From a virus (taxonomy: Duplodnaviria; Heunggongvirae; Uroviricota; Caudoviricetes): DNA of 39,225 nucleotides. Each line of letters starts with the position of its first letter. Position 1 is the first letter of the stretch. The notes below the pieces were generated by a model that saw only the letters and a program-made list of their open reading frames with translations, searched no databases and was not told the DNA's origin. The position numbers and the translations under genes are program-made. The stretch spans positions 1 to 39,225 of IMG/VR virus record IMGVR_UViG_2703718821_000012. The stretch is one strand, 5' to 3'. Shown one piece after another: positions 30,366 to 39,225 of the stretch.

Positions 30366-31754
30366 ATGGCTACTTGGCAAGGATCAAATGGCGGATTGTT
30401 AGCTGGTATCGGCGGCGTCAACTCAAACGCTCCGAGCGTAAATGAGATCGGCAATACGCTTCAGTTTATCAGGCAGAACAATGATATTGAGCGTTCAGGC
30501 GCTAACAATGTTGGGCTGACTGCTTTGCAAGGCATTTCAGGTATTACCGGGGTGTTTCAGCAGGAAAAGCAGGCTCAGCGGCAGAAAGAATTTCAGCAGG
30601 CATACGCTAATGCTTATGCGTCTGGTGATCGCGGTGCTTTGCGTCAGTTGGCTACTCAATATCCAGACCAGATTGAATCCGTTCGTAAAGGCATGGGATT
30701 CATTGATGAAGACCAACGCAATTCTATCGGCACCTTAGCGGCTGGCGCACGCCTTGCGGCATCGTCTCCAGAAGCAATGCAATCATGGCTGCAAAACAAC
30801 GCCAAGGAACTGACTCGCGTCGGTGTTGACCCTAACAGCGTTGCTCAGATGTATCAGCAGAATCCTTCAGGATTTGGTGAGTTTGTTGATCACCTTGGGA
30901 TGGCTGCTCTTGGTCCGATTGATTACTTCAATGTTCAGGACAAGATGGCTGGTCGTGAAATTGACCGAGGCAGGCTGGCAGAGACAATCCGCAGCAATCA
31001 GGCTGGAGAGGCGCTAACAGCACGAGGTCAGAACATCACGATGCGCGGTCAGGACTTATCTGCTTCTACTGCGCGACGTGGGCAGGATTTGGCAATGCAG
31101 CGAGCGTCAACAAGAGGAACCGCTGGGAATGATGAGCGTACAGTTCAGTTATCAGATGGCAGAACTGTAACGGTAGGAGGGAAGCTTCATGGCGCTGGGG
31201 CTAATGCGTTCTACGAAGGTATCGACAACGAGGGGAATATGGTTCGCGTCCCTGCCAGTTCAATCGCTGCGCCGGCAACATCGTCTGCATCAGCACAAAA
31301 CTATGCCATGAAGAAGGATATCGACGCGATCGCAAATGCAGACGCTTCTGCTCTCGATTTCATGACAGGAATGACAGGCGGTGCAGGTAATCCAGCAATT
31401 GGTGCTGATGTTCGCAGCCGATTAACGGGAAAAGAGCAGCGCCAGTTATATAACTCAGCACAACGTATTCAGGGCAGAATGCAGAATCAGGGTGTGGCGG
31501 CAGCAAGGGACATGGGTGCCAGTGGTATTAACACCGTTGCAGAAGCGAAGATGTATTTTCAGGGGATGCCGCAGGTTGACTATTCAAGCCCGGAGGCTAT
31601 GCAGCAGTCGATTCGTGAGATTCAGGAATACACCAACAATTACAACCAACAATATAACGTTAATGTTGGTAAATCTCAGCGGAAGCAATCTCAACCTGCA
31701 CAGGTATCACAGCCAGCAGCCAGCAGTAACTTTTCTTCACTATGGGGTGATTAA
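30366..31754 (+). CDS. Ejection protein (P22 gp20-like)
   Basis: 462 aa; synteny and size close to P22 gp20 (471 aa). Confidence 0.75.
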
Positions 31755-33751
31755 TGGCTAAAGCATGGAAAGATGTTATCGCCTCTCCACAGTATCAGGC
31801 GTTAGCACCAGAACAAAAAGCGCAGGCTCAGGAGCAATACTTCAATGAAGTCGTGGCCCCGCAAGCCGGAGAAAATGCAGAGCAGGCTAAGCAAGCTTTC
31901 TATGCTGCCTATCCATTGCCATCTGTGCAGCCAGTGGAGACACAACAACCAGAAGCACAGCAACAACCACAGCAAAGTGGATTTGTGTCTGATCTTGGTG
32001 AAGCCGTGAAAGAAACTGGTCGCGGACTGGTGCAGGCTGGCGTGAACGTGGCAAACATACCTGCATCAGTTGCCGATGCTGTAACAAGCGCGGCGGCTTG
32101 GGCTGGCGGTAAACTCGGAATTGGCGATGGGACATATCACCCAGCGCCACGAGTAACAACGCAGGGATTAGAGCAGGACTTTGGCCTTCAGCAAGGTGCG
32201 CTGACTCCACAAACGACAGAGGGAAGGGTATTTGCTGAAGCATTGCCTTACCTCACTCCTGCTGGCGTTGAGAGAGCGGCAGCACAGGCACCAACACTTG
32301 CTGGTCGAATTGCTCAGGGGGCAACTCGCCTTCTAGCAGAAAACGCAGTTGGATCACTTGCTGCAAATAGTGCGAAAGATGATGCGGAAGCACTCGCCAC
32401 CGATTTAGGCGTTGGTGTACTTGCTGGCGGTGCTATTAACGCTGCCGGACGTGGATTAGGTGCTGCTTATCGTGGTGTTCGTGGTTCTATCGCGCCAGAA
32501 GCACAGCAGGCTATCAGATTTGCAGAGCGTGAAGGCGTTCCTCTGCACACCACAGACCTGTTACAGCCTACTTCCCGCGTCGGGAAAATGGCGCAGACTA
32601 CAGCAGAAAATATCCCTCTGGCTGGCACAAGCGGAATGAGAGCAACGCAACAGGAAGCGAGAAGCCAGTTGGTGCAGAGATTTGCTGATAAATTCGGTGA
32701 GTATGATCCAGCGGTTGTTATTGACAGCCTTAAAGCGAAAACATCAGGAATTCGTCGTGCCGCAGGTAATCGACTGGAGCAGGTTCAGAATGCTATGGCT
32801 GGAGTAAACATTCAGCCTGCGCGAGCAATTCAGCAGATTGATACAGAAATATCTAATCTGCAGAAGCTTGGTAAGGTCGCCGATAACGAGACTATTTCAA
32901 AACTTCAGTCCTATCGTGATGAGCTTGTTCGCAATGCTGGTCCTGATGGTCCGGTAAATCTGGATTTGAAGCAATTAAGCGATCTGCGCAGCCAGTTCAG
33001 AATGGACGTGAAGGGGGAACGACCAGTGTTACCAAACCGTTCCGATGCTGCCATTCAGCGCGTTTACAAGGCGATGACAGACGATATCAATGGTGCCATT
33101 AATCAGAATCTTGGCAACGATACTCTCCGTAAATATCAGCAGGCCAATGCCGTATACGCTGACGAAGCGGCGAAACTAAAGAATACCAGGCTGAAGAATG
33201 TTCTCATGAAAGGCGACCTGACGCCGGAAGTTGTCAACAACATGCTATTCAGCAAGAACAAATCGGAAATTAAGACGCTGTATAACTCAGTTGGTCGTGT
33301 TGGCAGGGCGCAAATGCGCAATGGCATCATTGGAAAGGCGATGGAGAAATCTGGCGGATCCCCTGACCAGTTCCTTCGGCAGCTTAACATCCTGCAAAAC
33401 CAGACTGGCATCACATTTAAGGGGCAGGACGCTGCTTATCTGAAAGGATTGAAAAATTACCTTCAGTCCACTCAGCAGGCAGCAAAAGCGGCAGTAACAA
33501 CACCAACAGGGCAGCAAACCATCCCGTTCATTATCGGGTATGGGACGGCAATGAACCCGGCGACAACTGGCGCAGCAGTAAGCTACGGACTTCTTACTCG
33601 CGCCTATGAGAGCGAGCCATTCAGAAATGCAATGCTCCGAATGGCAAACACCCCACGAGGATCAACAGCGTTTGAGAAAGCCATGCAGCAGGCACAAAAG
33701 GCAATTAACGCTATGACGCAGGGGGCTAAGTCTGATGCATTGTCAGAATAG
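31754..33751 (+). CDS. Ejection protein (P22 gp16-like)
   Basis: 665 aa; last gene of the ejection protein trio; Ala/Gln-rich. Confidence 0.75.
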   Translation: MAKAWKDVIASPQYQALAPEQKAQAQEQYFNEVVAPQAGENAEQAKQAFYAAYPLPSVQPVETQQPEAQQQPQQSGFVSDLGEAVKETGRGLVQAGVNVANIPASVADAVTSAAAWAGGKLGIGDGTYHPAPRVTTQGLEQDFGLQQGALTPQTTEGRVFAEALPYLTPAGVERAAAQAPTLAGRIAQGATRLLAENAVGSLAANSAKDDAEALATDLGVGVLAGGAINAAGRGLGAAYRGVRGSIAPEAQQAIRFAEREGVPLHTTDLLQPTSRVGKMAQTTAENIPLAGTSGMRATQQEARSQLVQRFADKFGEYDPAVVIDSLKAKTSGIRRAAGNRLEQVQNAMAGVNIQPARAIQQIDTEISNLQKLGKVADNETISKLQSYRDELVRNAGPDGPVNLDLKQLSDLRSQFRMDVKGERPVLPNRSDAAIQRVYKAMTDDINGAINQNLGNDTLRKYQQANAVYADEAAKLKNTRLKNVLMKGDLTPEVVNNMLFSKNKSEIKTLYNSVGRVGRAQMRNGIIGKAMEKSGGSPDQFLRQLNILQNQTGITFKGQDAAYLKGLKNYLQSTQQAAKAAVTTPTGQQTIPFIIGYGTAMNPATTGAAVSYGLLTRAYESEPFRNAMLRMANTPRGSTAFEKAMQQAQKAINAMTQGAKSDALSE

Positions 33752-33841
33752 CTTTTCAAACACCAGGAACGTGCAAAAACCAAATATGTAGAACGCGAGG
33801 TTTATCGTATCCCTCTGCATAGGCGATACCTTTGCTGATTG

Positions 33842-34327
33842 TTATCTGATGTTACTGCTACTGTTGCATGTGACTGTATTTCCAAACCCTGAATTGCAGT
33901 TTGTGTAAGTGTCAACTCGTGTTGGATAGGGTTGAGTTATAACAGGCTGTCTCGCTTTTTGCTCGATCGCTTGCATTGTGTTTACAGCCTGATAATTCAA
34001 TAAAGCCTGCTGGAATGCTTGGCTTTGTGCTATTTGTTGTGCTTGTTCTTGGCTTTGTAATTGAACATAAAGATTCTGAAGCTCAAGTCTTGCCTGTGCG
34101 TCACTTATCTTGCCTTCATCGACACCTTGCCCGAGCATCTTTGCAGCAAGGACATACAGTTTAGGTGTTGGTGCTGATGCCATGCGTGAGTCGTTCTTCA
34201 CACTGGCATCAAGGCAATTAGCCATATCGCTAAGCTTTTGATAGCGTTGTTCGCAACTTGCTTGATAGTCACTTACTTTTGCGCATCCAACCAGCAGAAG
34301 CGGGATAATTAACAGTGATTTTTTCAT
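33842..34327 (-). CDS. Predicted outer-membrane lipoprotein (161 aa), candidate exclusion / lysogenic conversion factor
   Basis: MKKSLLIIPLLLVGC lipoprotein signal with lipobox LVGC, Ala at +2; AAGGAG upstream; Gln-rich coiled region; opposite strand to late operon, downstream of mnt. Confidence 0.6.
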   Translation of the reverse strand: MKKSLLIIPLLLVGCAKVSDYQASCEQRYQKLSDMANCLDASVKNDSRMASAPTPKLYVLAAKMLGQGVDEGKISDAQARLELQNLYVQLQSQEQAQQIAQSQAFQQALLNYQAVNTMQAIEQKARQPVITQPYPTRVDTYTNCNSGFGNTVTCNSSSNIR

Positions 34328-34397
34328 ATGGTTAACTCTCCTTAGTTTTTCACAGGATAGCATGAAGGCAATGCCATTTTAGCCGGAAACTAGATTT

Positions 34398-34664
34398 CTA
34401 TGTTTCCTTTTTATTATTGCTATACATGGTCTTAAGCGTTTCAAAAACCATTTTCTTAACCATATCAGATTGTTGTTCTGCCATACGCTCTGCATCGTCA
34501 ATGTAAACGGATGCAGAGCTTTGTTTAGCCAACGATTCTTCAATCGCTGCAATTATCTCTGAGTTCAGCGATCTGTTATTCATCTTCGCACGCTGCTTAA
34601 TTTTCGCGTGGAGTTCATGCGGAAGTCTCAAGTGAAACTGCGCCTCATCGTATTTGCTGTACAT
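34398..34664 (-). CDS. mnt: Mnt-like ribbon-helix-helix repressor
   Basis: 88 aa MYSKYDEAQFHLRLPHELHAKIKQRAKMNNRSLNSEIIAAIEESL...DDAERMAEQQSDMVKKMVFETLKTMY aligns with P22 Mnt (NDAERLADEQSELVKKMVFDTLKDLY); RBS GGTGAGG. Confidence 0.75.
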   Translation of the reverse strand: MYSKYDEAQFHLRLPHELHAKIKQRAKMNNRSLNSEIIAAIEESLAKQSSASVYIDDAERMAEQQSDMVKKMVFETLKTMYSNNKKET

Positions 34665-34737
34665 CCTTGATGCCTCACCAGTTGGGTGGAATGGCATCGT
34701 AACCTACTGGATAAATACTCAATAGTACCATTTCGGT

Positions 34738-34760
34738 ATGCAACCACATCATGGTTGCAT
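34738..34760. promoter_or_regulatory. Inverted repeat ATGCAACC-N7-GGTTGCAT, candidate Mnt operator
   Basis: Perfect 8-bp arms between divergent mnt and tailspike genes. Confidence 0.45.
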
Positions 34761-34785
34761 CATATCATTCGTCTGGAGCAATGAA

Positions 34786-36606
34786 ATGTCAGATATCACC
34801 GCAAATGTTGTGGTAAGCATGCCTTCGCAACTCTTCACTATGGCGCGTTCTTTTAAAGCCGTGGCTAATGGCAAAATTTATATCGGAAAAATTGACACTG
34901 ACCCGGTAAATCCTGAAAACCAGATTCAGGTCTATGTTGAGAACGAAGACGGTTCTCACGTTCCTGTTGCACAGCCAATCATCATTAACGCTGGCGGGTA
35001 TCCTGTATATAACGGACAGATTGCCAAGTTCGTAACTGTGCAAGGCCATTCTATGGCTGTTTATGATGCGTACGGTGTGCAGCAGTTCTATTTTCCGAAT
35101 GTGCTGAAGTATGACCCTGACCAACTTAGGCAGGATCTTGCAGGACCAGATGGATATTATCTTATCCCATCTCTTATACAGAAATGGAAAGATGATGGTG
35201 ATTTACGTGGTTGGGGAATAGGAGAAGATGCATTTAACGCAGCTATGACTGAGATATCAGAAAGTGGCGGCGGCGTTCTTCATGTGAATGAAGACATCAT
35301 TTTTAGTACAATTCCTATCATGCATAAGCCTGGGGTTACTGTTTACTGGAATAATCATCGTGCAATTGTTCCTGCCGGTTTGAGTTCAACATATGCGTAT
35401 ATAATGGATGGTGGTGCCGACACGCCTGTATACGATAATACCGATCATTTCACGCTAGCTAACAAGACGAATTGTTATAATCTGCATCTTGAGGCATCTG
35501 ACTATGCTGTCGGTGTGAATGCTATTGGTGTATGCGTTAGACATTGCTACGGATATACGTATGAAGGAGGGGCAATTATTGGTTTCAATAATGGTGGTTA
35601 TTACGATGAATTATGCTATGAAGGTAAAGTTAGTAAATTTACTATGGTTGTGTCCAACTCTAGAGCGGAACAATCAATAGGATTAAACAGTAATACTACG
35701 GATACTTGGTATTCGGAAATTTCCCCTGTTGGTTACGCATATGGCGGTAAAATGAATAGGAGTGGTAATAGCTTAGATAAGTTTCATTCTTGGGGGAATA
35801 CTATCGATGATCGTGTTGGCTTAATGGGTAAAATGCATGTGGGATTGTGGGTTACTGAAAACGGAGGCTTTTCTACCTACACCAATCTAATTTTGGACAC
35901 TCCAGTAAGAAGAGATTCTAGTTCAGGTCCATCTAGAACTAATGGTGGTGTAGGTTTGATAAATGATGCGTGGGATACCAGTTTTGACGGTGTAATCGTC
36001 TCATGCTCTAAGAATGATATGGTGGCAAAAAGCACCCTACCAGTAATAACCTCATCACAAGGTGTAACCTATAAAGATCTTTCAGTTAGTAATCCTGAAT
36101 ACGCAACTGACATATGGGTATCATTTGAAAATAATTCTGGAATAGCTTTAAATCATATTATTGGATATGGATATGCACAATTGATGCGTAATGGCGCTGG
36201 CATAAGCTCAACATCAGGAGCTGCTTTCGCTCCTGCAAATGGAGTTACCATTTCATTACAGACACTATCTTCTGGAATTTGGTATAACACATTAAACTTT
36301 TCCATCAAGACAACAATAACAGCCACATCATCTGCATCAAGCGATGTAATTGTTAATATTGCTCCTATGTATGGAGTGAGAAATGGATTTGGAGGGGCAG
36401 TTAAGGGAGGGCTAGATGCTTTCTTTTATGCAACCGCAAATACAGCAAAACAACTATATGATGTTTATGTTGAAGTAACCTCTGCTAACACCGCCAAGTT
36501 TTTATTAACATTCATTGACGGAACAACAAGATACGCCAGATGGACAGATGTATCTAACGGATCTGCAAGGGCTATTTCTGTATCATGTAATATAGATGTT
36601 AAATAA
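34786..36606 (+). CDS. Tailspike protein: P22-type head-binding N-domain with divergent receptor-binding domain
   Basis: 606 aa; N-terminus [71 protein letters not shown] matches P22 gp9 head-binding domain; remainder unrelated to P22 gp9 and AT-rich. Confidence 0.85.
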
Positions 36607-36648: not shown

Positions 36649-37755
36649 CTACTTGTTAAACCTGCACTCTATGTGTTTATAAGTAAATGCAGATGCTAAG
36701 ATCGTTATTGAAAGACAAATCACAGAGTATATTATTAACTGAGTTGTGTTTGTTTCAGACAGATTAACAAACTTAGAGGCTATTCTGTAAAATACATGCA
36801 GCACTGGTTGATGCAGTAAGTAAATGCTATAGCTAATTTCCCCTAAGAAAGCGATAGACGGAATGCTTAATAACCTTGGTTTTAGCACAACGCAAGACGC
36901 AAACATAAGTGATATCATGATAAATCGATAAAAGCTATATTGTTTTACATCGAAATAGAATGACATATAAAACAAAAACGCAAAAACTATATATATAACT
37001 GCTCTAAGTGATGTTTTTTCTATGTTTATTTCTTTGATTTTTGCGCAAAGAGCCCCAGCTACAAAGTACGACCACAACACTTTATCTTCATAGAAATCGT
37101 TGATCAATACAAAGCACCCAAAAGCAATTACCATGTACTTGAATTTTTTAGTATAGAGAGCAGTCGCTAAGAATGGGATAGATGCATAAAACTTCCACTC
37201 ATATGGGAGTGTCCACAATACTATATTTAAAGTAGCATCTCTATGTGCGCCCCAGTATAGCTCAGTTCCAAAAAAACCAAACCCAAATATTTTAAGTAAT
37301 TGAGTGACAAATAAAGGAAGGTCTAATTTCCCTAACATCTGTGAAAAATATATTACAGATATTAAAGTAGCGGTAAATAGATATAATGGAACTAATCTCT
37401 TTATTCTTTTTGCGTAAAATGATGTAAAGTCTATTTTATTATTTGAAAGTATTTTTGAAGAGAACAGAAATCCAGTTATGCAAAAAAATATCTGAACACC
37501 CAAGGCACCAGATTGGCTGAAAAGATAAAAGTTAGAGTAATCAATATTCTTAGTTTTTATCAACATATCACCAATGGCGTAAGCAGAGTGGTTGATGAAA
37601 ACGGCGATACATGCAAAACCCCTGAGTCCTTCAATGTACTGAATTTTGCCCTGATCTGTAGACTTTCTAATGAAAATAGATGTTGCCATTATTGGTACAG
37701 CAAGCATGACCAAATAGATGCAAAAGAAAGACAATTGGTAGTTATAAAGCGGCAT
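36649..37755 (-). CDS. oac: Integral membrane acyltransferase, family 3 (O-antigen acetyltransferase-like)
   Basis: 368 aa; about 10 hydrophobic segments; motif YIEGLRGFACIAVFINHS near N-terminus typical of acyltransferase-3; strongly AT-rich; next to tailspike and attP. Confidence 0.75.
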   Translation of the reverse strand: MPLYNYQLSFFCIYLVMLAVPIMATSIFIRKSTDQGKIQYIEGLRGFACIAVFINHSAYAIGDMLIKTKNIDYSNFYLFSQSGALGVQIFFCITGFLFSSKILSNNKIDFTSFYAKRIKRLVPLYLFTATLISVIYFSQMLGKLDLPLFVTQLLKIFGFGFFGTELYWGAHRDATLNIVLWTLPYEWKFYASIPFLATALYTKKFKYMVIAFGCFVLINDFYEDKVLWSYFVAGALCAKIKEINIEKTSLRAVIYIVFAFLFYMSFYFDVKQYSFYRFIMISLMFASCVVLKPRLLSIPSIAFLGEISYSIYLLHQPVLHVFYRIASKFVNLSETNTTQLIIYSVICLSITILASAFTYKHIECRFNK

Positions 37756-38067: not shown

Positions 38068-39225
38068 CTATGACACCTTCTCATCAAGCCAATCCGCCCA
38101 CCACTGCATCATTTCTCTGCGCTTATCGAGATACTGCGCATGGTTGTAAATACCGCGCACAGATCCGCCGTTGGCATGTGCCAGCTGCACTTCAATAGCG
38201 TCAGCAGGCCATTCGTGCTCGTTCATAATCGTGCTGAATTCATGCCTGAATCCGTGACCGCTTTCCAGACCCTCATAGCCGATTTGTTTGATCACAAGCA
38301 ATACCGCGTTCTCGCAGATTGGCTTCTTCTTATCGTTGCGCCCGGCAAAAACAAACTCTGAGACTGGTTTGGTGATTGAGCTTAGCGTAGTGAGAAGTTC
38401 AACCACCTGGTCCGACATCGGGACCACATGAATCTTGCGTCCCTTCATCACACTGGCGTCGATGGTGATAATCCTGTTTTCAAAATCGACGTTCTTCCAT
38501 TGCATGGAACGAAGCTCTTTCGTTCTTAGGGCTGTGTAGCGTAAGACTTTGGTCGCAATGAGCGATACGATACTTCCTGAAAATGTTGCCAGTGCTTTGT
38601 TGAATGCCGGGATCTGGTCTGCTGGAAGAAACGGGAAGTTCTTCTTGCGGTATCCTTTCATGGCGTCTGCAAGGTCAGGTGCCGGGTTATATTTAGCCCT
38701 TCCGGTGACAATAGCGTAACGAAAAACCTCGCCGCATCTTCTGCGGGCTTTATTGGCTCGTTCCATTGCACAGCGATCTTCAAATCTGCGGATTACTTCC
38801 AGCAGTTGCATCGGCTCAATATCCTGAATCTCAAGACCGCCGATGATGGGCAAAATGTCGTCATCAAACATTTTGGCAAGTTCAGTCGCATAGCCTACTG
38901 ACCAGACTTGCTTCTTGTGCTCGTACCATTCCTTGTATATTGCACTAAAGGAATTGTTGTTAGACGAAGCCTTTTTCACTTTTACTGGATCGATGCCAAC
39001 CGAGATGTCTTTCCTCGCAGTCCATGCCTTATCCCTTGCTTCCTGCAAAGTCATAAGCGGATATTTTCCGACAGTCAGGATTTTCTCCTTACCGTCAATC
39101 TTGTAGCGAAGCTGCCATACCTTTTTCCCTGATACAGGGACATAAAGGTACAGGCCATTACCATCGAGTAGGCGGTATGGTTTTTCTTTCGGCTTTGCTG
39201 CTTCAATCTGCTTAACGGTGAGCAT
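38068..39225 (-). CDS. int: Tyrosine integrase, P4-like family
   Basis: 385 aa starting MLTVKQIEAAKPKEKPYRLLDGNGLYLYV (typical P4-type N-terminus); catalytic-region motifs HGFRHEFST and C-terminal Tyr; ATG is the last 3 nt of the window. Confidence 0.9.
   Translation of the reverse strand: MLTVKQIEAAKPKEKPYRLLDGNGLYLYVPVSGKKVWQLRYKIDGKEKILTVGKYPLMTLQEARDKAWTARKDISVGIDPVKVKKASSNNNSFSAIYKEWYEHKKQVWSVGYATELAKMFDDDILPIIGGLEIQDIEPMQLLEVIRRFEDRCAMERANKARRRCGEVFRYAIVTGRAKYNPAPDLADAMKGYRKKNFPFLPADQIPAFNKALATFSGSIVSLIATKVLRYTALRTKELRSMQWKNVDFENRIITIDASVMKGRKIHVVPMSDQVVELLTTLSSITKPVSEFVFAGRNDKKKPICENAVLLVIKQIGYEGLESGHGFRHEFSTIMNEHEWPADAIEVQLAHANGGSVRGIYNHAQYLDKRREMMQWWADWLDEKVS

Follow-up and report, generated by a model that had tools for sequence, protein, structure and literature searches.

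Between gene 16 and the tailspike gene (gene 9), the late operon of P22-like phages holds a fast-changing segment known as the "ant moron" (Villafane et al. 2008, PMC2629481). In P22 this position is occupied, according to the annotated record, by sieA, orf59a, mnt, arc, sar, and ant. An orphan mnt beside a gene of unknown function has already been described for ST64T, ST104, and phage L, and a prophage of E. coli B7A is among the genomes drawn in Fig. 3 of the same study (PMC2629481). Homologues of SieA, the exclusion protein of P22, are confined to P22-like prophages, where they lie between genes 16 and 9 in several enterobacterial genera, and 85 bp 5' of P22 sieA sufficed for exclusion from a single chromosomal copy (Leavitt et al. 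2024, PMC10883804). The locus analyzed here, positions 33842–34760 of the IMG/VR virus record IMGVR_UViG_2703718821_000012 (39,225 nt, referred to at its full length as the window), represents an ant moron in reduced form, from a P22-like prophage of E. coli/Shigella, and the whole window represents the genome of such a (Lederbergvirus-type) prophage. The best overall explanation of the locus, held with slightly better than even confidence, combines a lipoprotein gene in the sieA slot, an orphan Mnt acting on a 17-bp operator, and a hairpin in the leader of the tailspike message. The reduced moron would then comprise a pair of independent cassettes on the minus strand, both maintained by selection, together with a single RNA feature on the plus strand.

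Much of what an initial annotation had read from the bare sequence agrees with the comparison. Its description of the P22 counterpart as sieA-mnt-arc-ant corresponds to the P22 record, which reads sieA-orf59a-mnt-arc-ant, and two minus-strand genes, one for a Mnt-like ribbon-helix-helix repressor and one for a lipoprotein, do oppose the late operon between the ejection gene gp16 and the tailspike gene. The reported absence of arc and ant also holds, as tblastn with the P22 Arc, Ant, and SieA proteins over the whole window returned nothing below E = 0.5. No Rfam family matched 33500–35000 at E <= 1, and the sar antisense RNA, the target gene of which (ant) is absent, was accordingly not found. 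A complete immI, in the sense of arc and ant downstream of a Mnt-controlled promoter, is therefore not present in the window. The proposed loss of arc and ant is a fair description in that mnt stands without them here and relatives with the full set exist, but the resulting arrangement is not new and belongs to a known kind of variation. Likewise, the term "remnant" suits the locus, reduced to mnt, but not its genes. All 123 copies of mnt are intact (84–88 codons), with a mean pairwise ratio of nonsynonymous to synonymous polymorphism (pN/pS) of 0.14 and a pS of 0.09 over 37 same-length alleles; the lipoprotein gene is full length (161 aa) in 123 of 126 copies, with one more of 159 aa, and has a pN/pS of 0.06 over 55 alleles. 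Because both genes are under purifying selection, neither is decaying.

Of 5426 complete E. coli genomes, 106 contain the same 1.15-kb arrangement, among them that of strain B7A, whose prophage is 96.8% identical to the window across the whole segment, and 186 contain the lipoprotein gene. Among isolated phages, Sf101 and IME10 hold this mnt without the lipoprotein gene, and Gally, vB_EcoP-720R6, and VSe13 hold the lipoprotein gene with other inserts. In a survey of 89 loci carrying the lipoprotein gene (handles such as L012 denote loci and contigs of the comparison), this gene adjoins gp16 in every locus with a detectable gp16 C-terminus, and is accompanied by a full mnt-arc-ant set (L012, L123, L126, L140, L167, L171, and L175), by mnt and ant, most commonly by mnt alone, or by none of them. 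Two E. coli genomes (NZ_CP022164.1 and NZ_CP021844.1) have otherwise identical loci with an inserted gene annotated as "HNH endonuclease signature motif containing protein".

The lipoprotein gene takes the slot that holds sieA in P22, together with its expression signals. Of the 29 bases in the minus-strand segment 5' of the gene (TTCATGCTATCCTGTGAAAAACTAAGGAG), 25 recur in the 5' region of P22 sieA, among them those of the TGnTATCCT extended -10 and of the ribosome-binding site, and an extended -10 of the TGnTAnnnT type is conserved 5' of the gene in relatives from Salmonella, Tatumella, and Serratia. Three loci that combine the lipoprotein gene with a P22-type immI (L171, L167, and L175) are the most informative: their homology to P22 is broken only around the sieA ORF (open reading frame), with an upstream region that is 93–97% identical (in L171, the whole region 5' of the lipoprotein gene is 93% identical to that 5' of P22 sieA). 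Since the homology is interrupted only there, the lipoprotein ORF has replaced the sieA ORF behind the same upstream region. The sieA slot and the sieA-type signals together therefore suggest that the lipoprotein is made in the lysogen independently of the late operon.

Published transcriptomic data from the Gally prophage of E. coli LF82, whose GALLYPH_13 is 97.5% identical in protein to the lipoprotein of the window, make this expression, also proposed in the initial annotation, plausible. GALLYPH_13 reached 70 normalised reads in overnight LB, compared with a prophage median of 15.6, and rose from a log2 of ~6.1 in LB to 7.9–8.2 in two intermediate conditions (columns B1 and B6) and to 10.3 after 1 h in macrophages, and the adjacent gp16 stayed at a log2 of 3.6–4.1 (PMC9928086, S1 Table). 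The orthologue is, then, transcribed in the lysogen while the neighboring late genes are silent. It has to be said against this reading that GALLYPH_13 is not among the morons listed by the Gally authors, since it stood 4.5-fold over background and their cut-off was 5-fold (PMC9928086). The most strongly induced Gally gene in the same RNA-seq table is the neighboring GALLYPH_14 (PMC9928086). This "hypothetical" gene (L002 3263–3682, ...LLSGCAT) and orf62 of phage L (L010 572–865, ...FLAGCAT) are unrelated moron genes that both hold lipoprotein signals of their own, so lipoprotein genes recur in the ant moron. In the part of Gally orthologous to ~33842–36606 and beyond in the window, mnt, the tailspike gene, and the gene after it are also up 20- to 40-fold in macrophages with other late genes at background (PMC9928086, S1 Table), which implies tailspike transcription independent of the late promoter.

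The protein itself begins with MKKSLLIIPLLLVGC, followed by AK, and holds a signal peptide with the lipobox LVGC and Ala at position +2, as first annotated, the lipobox cysteine being Cys15. The lipobox fits the pattern [LVI][ASTVI][GAS]C, and among 31 family members Cys15 is invariant and Gly14 nearly so. Residue +2 is Ala, Val, or Thr in the family, also Ser or Gln in distant relatives, and Asp in none. According to the Lol sorting rule of E. coli, a residue other than Asp at +2 directs a lipoprotein to the outer membrane, and sorting to this membrane is predicted here because position +2 is not Asp. The Gln-rich segment noted in the initial annotation comprises 16 Gln in 51 residues (78–128), and the structure model places one long helix at 76–125. 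In this model the helical domain of residues 20–100 is confident (pLDDT 81–87), the C-terminus is poor, and the only hydrophobic stretch is the signal peptide, after which a soluble helical domain follows. Besides Cys15, the family alignment shows no variation at C25, C38, or C154, and all aligned members have one more C-terminal cysteine (C144 here), so that the pairs C25/C38 and C144/C154 presumably form disulfides. The mature protein would thus be exported, lipidated at Cys15, sorted to the outer membrane, stabilized by two disulfides, and active in the envelope.

This lipoprotein matches phrog_6067, a family of no known function, over its full length (1.6e-110). No family was found for it in Pfam, NCBIfam, or PADLOC, where the sole NCBIfam match is a far sub-threshold GspK stretch in the Gln-rich helix, and a sequence profile search of the PDB gave no informative relative. 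Foldseek against viral structure models returned nothing at E <= 0.001, and fold searches return generic helical bundles only. The family comprises ~94 clusters at 90% identity across Enterobacterales, and all cases examined, including those from Serratia, Yersinia ruckeri, Tatumella, and Providencia, are located in a P22-like prophage, after gp16 and before the tailspike gene; a species-level genome scan for the locus returned 5 loci only. A profile search adds ~250 further clusters of small lipoproteins, mostly of 125–140 aa, which share the N-domain and the C-terminal Cys pair, and for which no Pfam family was found in the ten tested. One of these distant relatives (metagenome contigs L178–L180; gene 5001–5534 of L178) is cargo of a satellite-like integrase-AlpA-primase/helicase element, where it adjoins a T5orf172-domain gene, and another is on a phage contig.

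Several phage lipoproteins, such as Cor (phi80/N15/HK022), Llp (T5), and Ltp (TP-J34), block receptors or phage entry. They act against long-tailed phages that use FhuA, or on the tape-measure protein. The leading guess for the lipoprotein of the window, with confidence a little short of even, is that it blocks superinfecting phage in the envelope, at the step of outer-membrane penetration or a later one. This reading is supported by the position of the gene in the sieA slot and by analogy with those other phage lipoproteins, the only two arguments for it. If true, the protein would be an outer-membrane counterpart of the inner-membrane SieA. The masking of an outer-membrane secondary receptor, the form of exclusion suggested in the initial annotation, is one sub-case, for which there is no specific support. 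A broader and rather doubtful proposal is that this lipoprotein founds a family of outer-membrane-anchored exclusion proteins against short-tailed P22-like phages, which would stop the ejection-protein conduit (gp7/gp20/gp16) or the tail needle at the periplasmic face of the outer membrane. It would then represent a second, mechanistically distinct occupant of the sieA slot, and the ~250 relative clusters of Cys-paired lipoproteins from phages, satellite-like elements, and chromosomes would be overlooked envelope-level anti-phage factors.

Three points weigh against exclusion: the sequence and structure searches yield no informative relative, one distant relative (L177) lies in an unremarkable chromosomal region, with uvrC, pgsA, and bio genes around it, and the strong rise of the Gally orthologue in macrophages suits a role in host fitness equally well. 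Indeed, the lipoprotein might be a host-fitness or virulence moron, an outer-membrane lipoprotein like Bor/Iss of lambda, which would help the lysogen to survive envelope stress, serum, or macrophages, although this alternative, the main rival, appears somewhat unlikely. In addition to the macrophage data and to the core chromosomal neighborhood of L177, it would account for the lower guanine-cytosine (GC) content of the locus (40–44%, compared with ~50% in the neighboring structural genes), which is typical of acquired accessory genes. However, in several genera the gene is restricted to a single slot of a single phage type, where it stands in place of a gene with proven exclusion function and uses the same start signals, and distant relatives are found on the phage contig and on the satellite-like element beside the T5orf172 gene mentioned above. 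Furthermore, no phenotype has been reported for the lipoprotein, the deletion that was without effect in macrophages being that of mnt (PMC9928086). The presence of the gene in the Crohn's-associated strain LF82, with its strong induction in macrophages, makes a host-fitness role of interest as well.

The second cassette encodes a genuine Mnt homologue. Its ORF matches the Pfam families Arc (PF03869; 1.1e-14, 54.4 bits with a cut-off of 20.4, residues 18–60 of the 99-aa form) and Repressor_Mnt (PF11423; 3.9e-12, 46.1 bits with a cut-off of 20.9), both above their cut-offs, as expected from the ribbon-helix-helix assignment of the initial annotation. The protein is 47% identical to P22 Mnt over 76 residues, and the stretch SD/ELVKKMVF-TLK is conserved with P22 Mnt. 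In the P22 protein the C-terminal domain mediates tetramer formation. The β-strand of the window protein, AQFHLRLP, places Gln, His, and Arg at the positions of His6, Asn8, and Arg10 of P22 Mnt. These DNA-reading residues are conserved within the QFHLR type of Mnt, and several Mnt types coexist in the prophage family.

In an alignment of control regions from P22, L, Gally, VSe13, Sf101, and many prophages, a CAATA motif, the complement of the leftward mnt -35, is conserved throughout, and the 17 bp after CAATA vary with the type of the Mnt β-strand. The strand HFNFR of P22 is accompanied at this position by AGGTCCACGGTGGACCT, the annotated operator; the strand QFNLR of L, Gally, and Providencia by the palindrome AAGACCACnGTGGTCT; the strand QINIR of L140 by GGTATAACGGTTATACC; and the strand QFHLR/T of this window, Sf101, VSe13, L100, and Tatumella L014 by AGTACCATTTCGGTATG, CGTACCATTTAGGTATG, CATACCATTTCGGTATG, and CTACAGTTTCCGTACG. 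The 17-mer is kept in every QFHLR-type locus whatever tailspike leader follows, occurs once in the window, and in L100 has perfect 6-bp arms (CATACC..GGTATG). On the basis of this covariation, the 17-mer at 34724–34740 is the best candidate for the Mnt operator, at even or marginally better than even confidence. Against it, the element is only weakly symmetric here (4-bp arms) and is somewhat polymorphic among relatives, and the prediction of the adjoining mnt promoter is weak because its spacer is only 15 bp. A consensus promoter scan missed this promoter and found 2 sites, compared with 2.7 expected by chance; the promoter calls come from manual alignment with annotated P22 promoters and are weak in general. 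The same manual and weak reading applies to the rightward equivalent of P22 Pant, which looks degraded, with poor -35 and -10 elements and a 15-bp spacer.

Other arrangements were seen in relatives. In an IMG/VR contig (L153), mnt is gone, but the space from the lipoprotein gene to the tailspike gene still has an operator-like palindrome of the L type, AAGACCACTGTGGTCT. In loci with a CUS-3-type mnt upstream of ant (L136, L137, L145, L148, and L155; strand QVNLR), the ant promoter holds two direct repeats of ATGCGTACC flanking its -10 instead of a palindrome, which suggests a different operator layout.

Acting in cis, Mnt would bind the 17-mer beside its own promoter, resulting in autoregulation and in the silencing of rightward transcription. 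In trans, it could repress the ant promoters of incoming phages with the same operator type. Mnt from a prophage is known to repress ant on superinfecting P22 genomes. An extension of the best overall explanation is thus that Mnt has been retained for this trans role, protecting the prophage from induction by superinfecting P22-like phages that hold ant under the same operator. Purifying selection on a repressor without a cis target needs explaining, and several Mnt specificity types in one prophage family are what would be expected of an immunity-like system. Nevertheless, neither this Mnt type nor the 17-mer is accompanied by an ant gene in any surveyed locus, which leaves the supposed target phages unobserved, and this extension is considered improbable, though by no means far-fetched.

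The initial annotation had placed the operator elsewhere, at a perfect inverted repeat between mnt and the start of the tailspike gene. The repeat was confirmed, with 9-bp arms separated by a 5-nt spacer, but it is probably a hairpin in the leader of the tailspike mRNA rather than an operator. Among 113 related IMG/VR contigs, only 4 hold the perfect arm ATGCAACCA, the rest having mostly ATGCAATCA in the left arm. In the 17 distinct variants of the hairpin, the seventh pair is mostly U.G (14 cases), otherwise C-G (2) or U-A (1); C-G also changes to U.G at two other pairs. Overall, 98.7% of the cells in this comparison pair as plus-strand RNA, whereas in RNA from the opposite strand the same changes would appear as A:C mismatches, and in duplex DNA they would break the symmetry. 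Moreover, five other junction types, including those of L100, L106/L087, L174/VSe13, and L061/L091/L093, hold the same Mnt type and the 17-mer with a different tailspike leader and without the repeat.

The position of the repeat also points to the tailspike message. Unrelated hairpins stand at the same place in other P22-like phages: P22, L, and HK620 have CCGTAGCCATGCTGCGG, Sf6, a phage devoid of the moron, has CCGGACAGGTTGCATCTTGTCCGG, and others are found in L153 and in prophages of Serratia, Yersinia, and Providencia. Taking a threshold of -6 kcal/mol or better, hairpins whose 3' end lies 23–29 nt before the tailspike ATG were found in 11 of 17 leader classes, compared with 3.4% of shuffled leaders. 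Most P22-like phages have such an element, with sequences that are unrelated. Examples are provided by the window (34738–34785), L009 (3166–3182), L184 (~2675–2698), L007, L008, and L013. Such a leader hairpin would affect the processing, stability, or translation of the tailspike message. A role as intrinsic terminator was discarded, as the stem is followed by CATATCATTCG with no T-run, and a scan of 33600–34900 gave no terminator-like site. The hairpin is unannotated in the records of P22, L, Sf6, and HK620, and no mention of it was found in the P22-like phage literature examined. A position-conserved hairpin in the tailspike leader would be a small but usable feature of P22-like late operons.

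Some observations do not favor the hairpin. All 113 contigs with this leader type carry this Mnt type, and the repeat is never seen apart from it. The covariation within the type is weak, with no pair changed on both sides and shuffled controls that score as high. Under the search criteria, 4 of the 17 leader classes have no hairpin and two more fall short of -6 kcal/mol, and one class (L154) appears to have lost its hairpin by deletion. One locus, L056, might be read as an exchange of the mnt side that left the hairpin next to the tailspike gene, but this is due to an IS2-type insertion and is hence not evidence for separability. In L056 and L265 the element (~1.3 kb, with an apparent 5-bp GTATG target duplication) is inserted precisely where the 17-mer meets the hairpin.

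That the 23-bp palindrome at 34738–34760 is nonetheless the operator of the orphan Mnt, controlling transcription toward the tailspike or toward mnt, is very doubtful. Its perfect arms between the two genes and its exclusive association with this Mnt type in IMG/VR (113 of 113) would fit such a function, as would a center 37 bp before the tailspike ATG, which is akin to the 28 bp from the P22 mnt operator to the arc ATG, and ACCA(C/T) motifs similar to the CCAC core found in the operators of P22 and L. However, the repeat is displaced by ~15 bp beyond the position of the P22 operator and of the L and Gally palindromes relative to CAATA and the mnt -35, a position held here by the 17-mer. The common T:G mismatch breaks the symmetry of the DNA and still pairs as plus-strand RNA, the loci that hold the same Mnt β-strand with other leaders keep the 17-mer and not the repeat, and some phages that have no mnt (such as Sf6 and Yersinia L008) show hairpins of unrelated sequence equally far from the tailspike ATG. 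A further perfect inverted repeat of 10 nt (GCTCTGCATC / GATGCAGAGC, with a 13-nt spacer) is found inside the mnt coding sequence at 34487–34519; such repeats are therefore not rare in this stretch. In P22, the tailspike leader element AAAATTCACCGTAGCCA(C/T)GCT is found twice, ~110 bp apart, between the ant terminator and gene 9 (L009 3045–3066 and 3154–3180).

Finally, the orphan Mnt might be no more than a relic without function in an immI that is decaying. This view, raised as one option in the phage L paper, is in keeping with the missing arc and ant, the apparently degraded Pant equivalent, and the lack of a macrophage phenotype of a Gally mnt deletion (PMC9928086). It is very improbable for a gene that is intact in all copies, has a pN/pS of 0.14 and reading residues conserved within its type, and whose ~40-fold induction in macrophages in Gally means that its promoter is active.

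The coordinates of the features are collected in Table 1. The two gene models agree with those of PGAP, the NCBI annotation, in a 98.9%-identical E. coli prophage. The longer ORFs of 173 aa for the lipoprotein and 99 aa for Mnt were rejected as real products, as their extra start codons lie inside predicted -10 elements and PGAP uses the shorter forms; mnt thus likely starts at ATG 34664, and not at ATG 34697. A tailspike start at ATG 34738, listed by the ORF finder, was likewise rejected, those bases being the first three of the hairpin. The ribosome-binding site of the tailspike gene lies within CTGGAGCAA (34773–34781), and the head-binding N-terminus of the protein is conserved with P22-like tailspikes. 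Only 121 bp separate the starts of mnt and the tailspike gene. On the other side of the moron, the gp16 homologue is annotated as an injection protein or a lytic transglycosylase in VSe13, Gally, and E. coli JX2. After the tailspike gene, the minus strand encodes a 368-aa membrane acyltransferase (36649–37755, GC 31–34%), placed like the O-antigen acetylases of Sf6 and Sf101, and beyond it a 385-aa ORF (38068–39225) at the position of the Sf6 integrase gene.

Table 1. Features of the reduced ant moron and of its flanking genes (positions in the window).
Feature	Position	Strand	Details
P22 gp16-type DNA-ejection gene	31754..33751	+	ORF; left boundary of the moron; convergent neighbor of the lipoprotein gene
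Lipoprotein gene	33842..34327	-	161 aa, ATG 34327; same gene model as PGAP
Predicted lipoprotein expression signals	34338..34366	-	Match to the P22 sieA 5' region; extended -10 TGCTATCCT (34362..34354), Shine-Dalgarno AAGGAG (34343..34338)
Orphan mnt homologue	34398..34664	-	88 aa; Pfam Arc and Repressor_Mnt matches; PGAP model
Putative mnt promoter	34696..34722	-	-35 TTGAGT (34722..34717), -10 TACGAT (34701..34696); manual alignment with P22 Pmnt (TTGAGA-17-TATCAT), L, Gally, and VSe13
Candidate Mnt operator	34724..34740	.	AGTACCATTTCGGTATG, 17 bp, core TACC-N5-GGTA; position of the P22 mnt operator
Inverted repeat, probable tailspike-leader hairpin	34738..34760	+	ATGCAACCA-CATCA-TGGTTGCAT; arms 34738–46 and 34752–60, perfect; 3' end 25 nt before the tailspike ATG
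Tailspike gene	34786..36606	+	Right boundary; true start ATG 34786, PGAP start at the equivalent position

Compared with known systems, the locus represents no new kind of system and overturns no expectation, its value being in the concrete and cheap experiments that it offers. The lipoprotein shares with P22 SieA the slot between genes 16 and 9, the orientation antisense to the late operon, and the 5' signals, a likeness of slot and not of family, as tblastn shows no sequence similarity between them. P22 SieA spans the inner membrane several times and has an FxRYPxEAxxFNK motif on the cytoplasmic side (PMC10883804), whereas the lipoprotein lacks this motif and holds a cleavable lipoprotein signal and a soluble helical domain, with predicted anchoring in the outer membrane. 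An unrelated lipoprotein that repeatedly takes the sieA slot with the same start signals is a candidate for a second exclusion mechanism, which could be assayed with the existing SieA assays. With Cor, Llp, and Ltp it has in common that it is a small phage lipoprotein made in the lysogen, for which an envelope-level block of infection is plausible, but the matches to Cor (phrog_1119, E = 0.035, residues 1–31) and to T5 Llp (PDB 8a60_B, E = 2, residues 1–30) cover the signal peptide only.

As for the repressor, the ribbon-helix-helix N-domain, the Mnt C-domain, the leftward gene, and the 17-bp element beside the mnt -35 are alike in P22 and in the window, while the window has neither an overlapping strong ant promoter nor an Arc operator, the reading residues differ, and the candidate site is partly symmetric. 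The strand class of the window Mnt is Gln/His/Arg, that of L being Gln/Asn/Arg and that of P22 His/Asn/Arg. The operator position also reads differently, and the comparison provides a natural series of repressor strands and operators that would be useful for work on ribbon-helix-helix specificity. With the ant moron of ST64T, ST104, L, and B7A, the locus shares the position between gene 16 and the tailspike gene, a leftward mnt, a divergent control region, and a mosaic history of gain and loss; what distinguishes it, besides the class of its Mnt and the sequence at the operator position, is its companion gene, which belongs to a different and larger family of lipoproteins.

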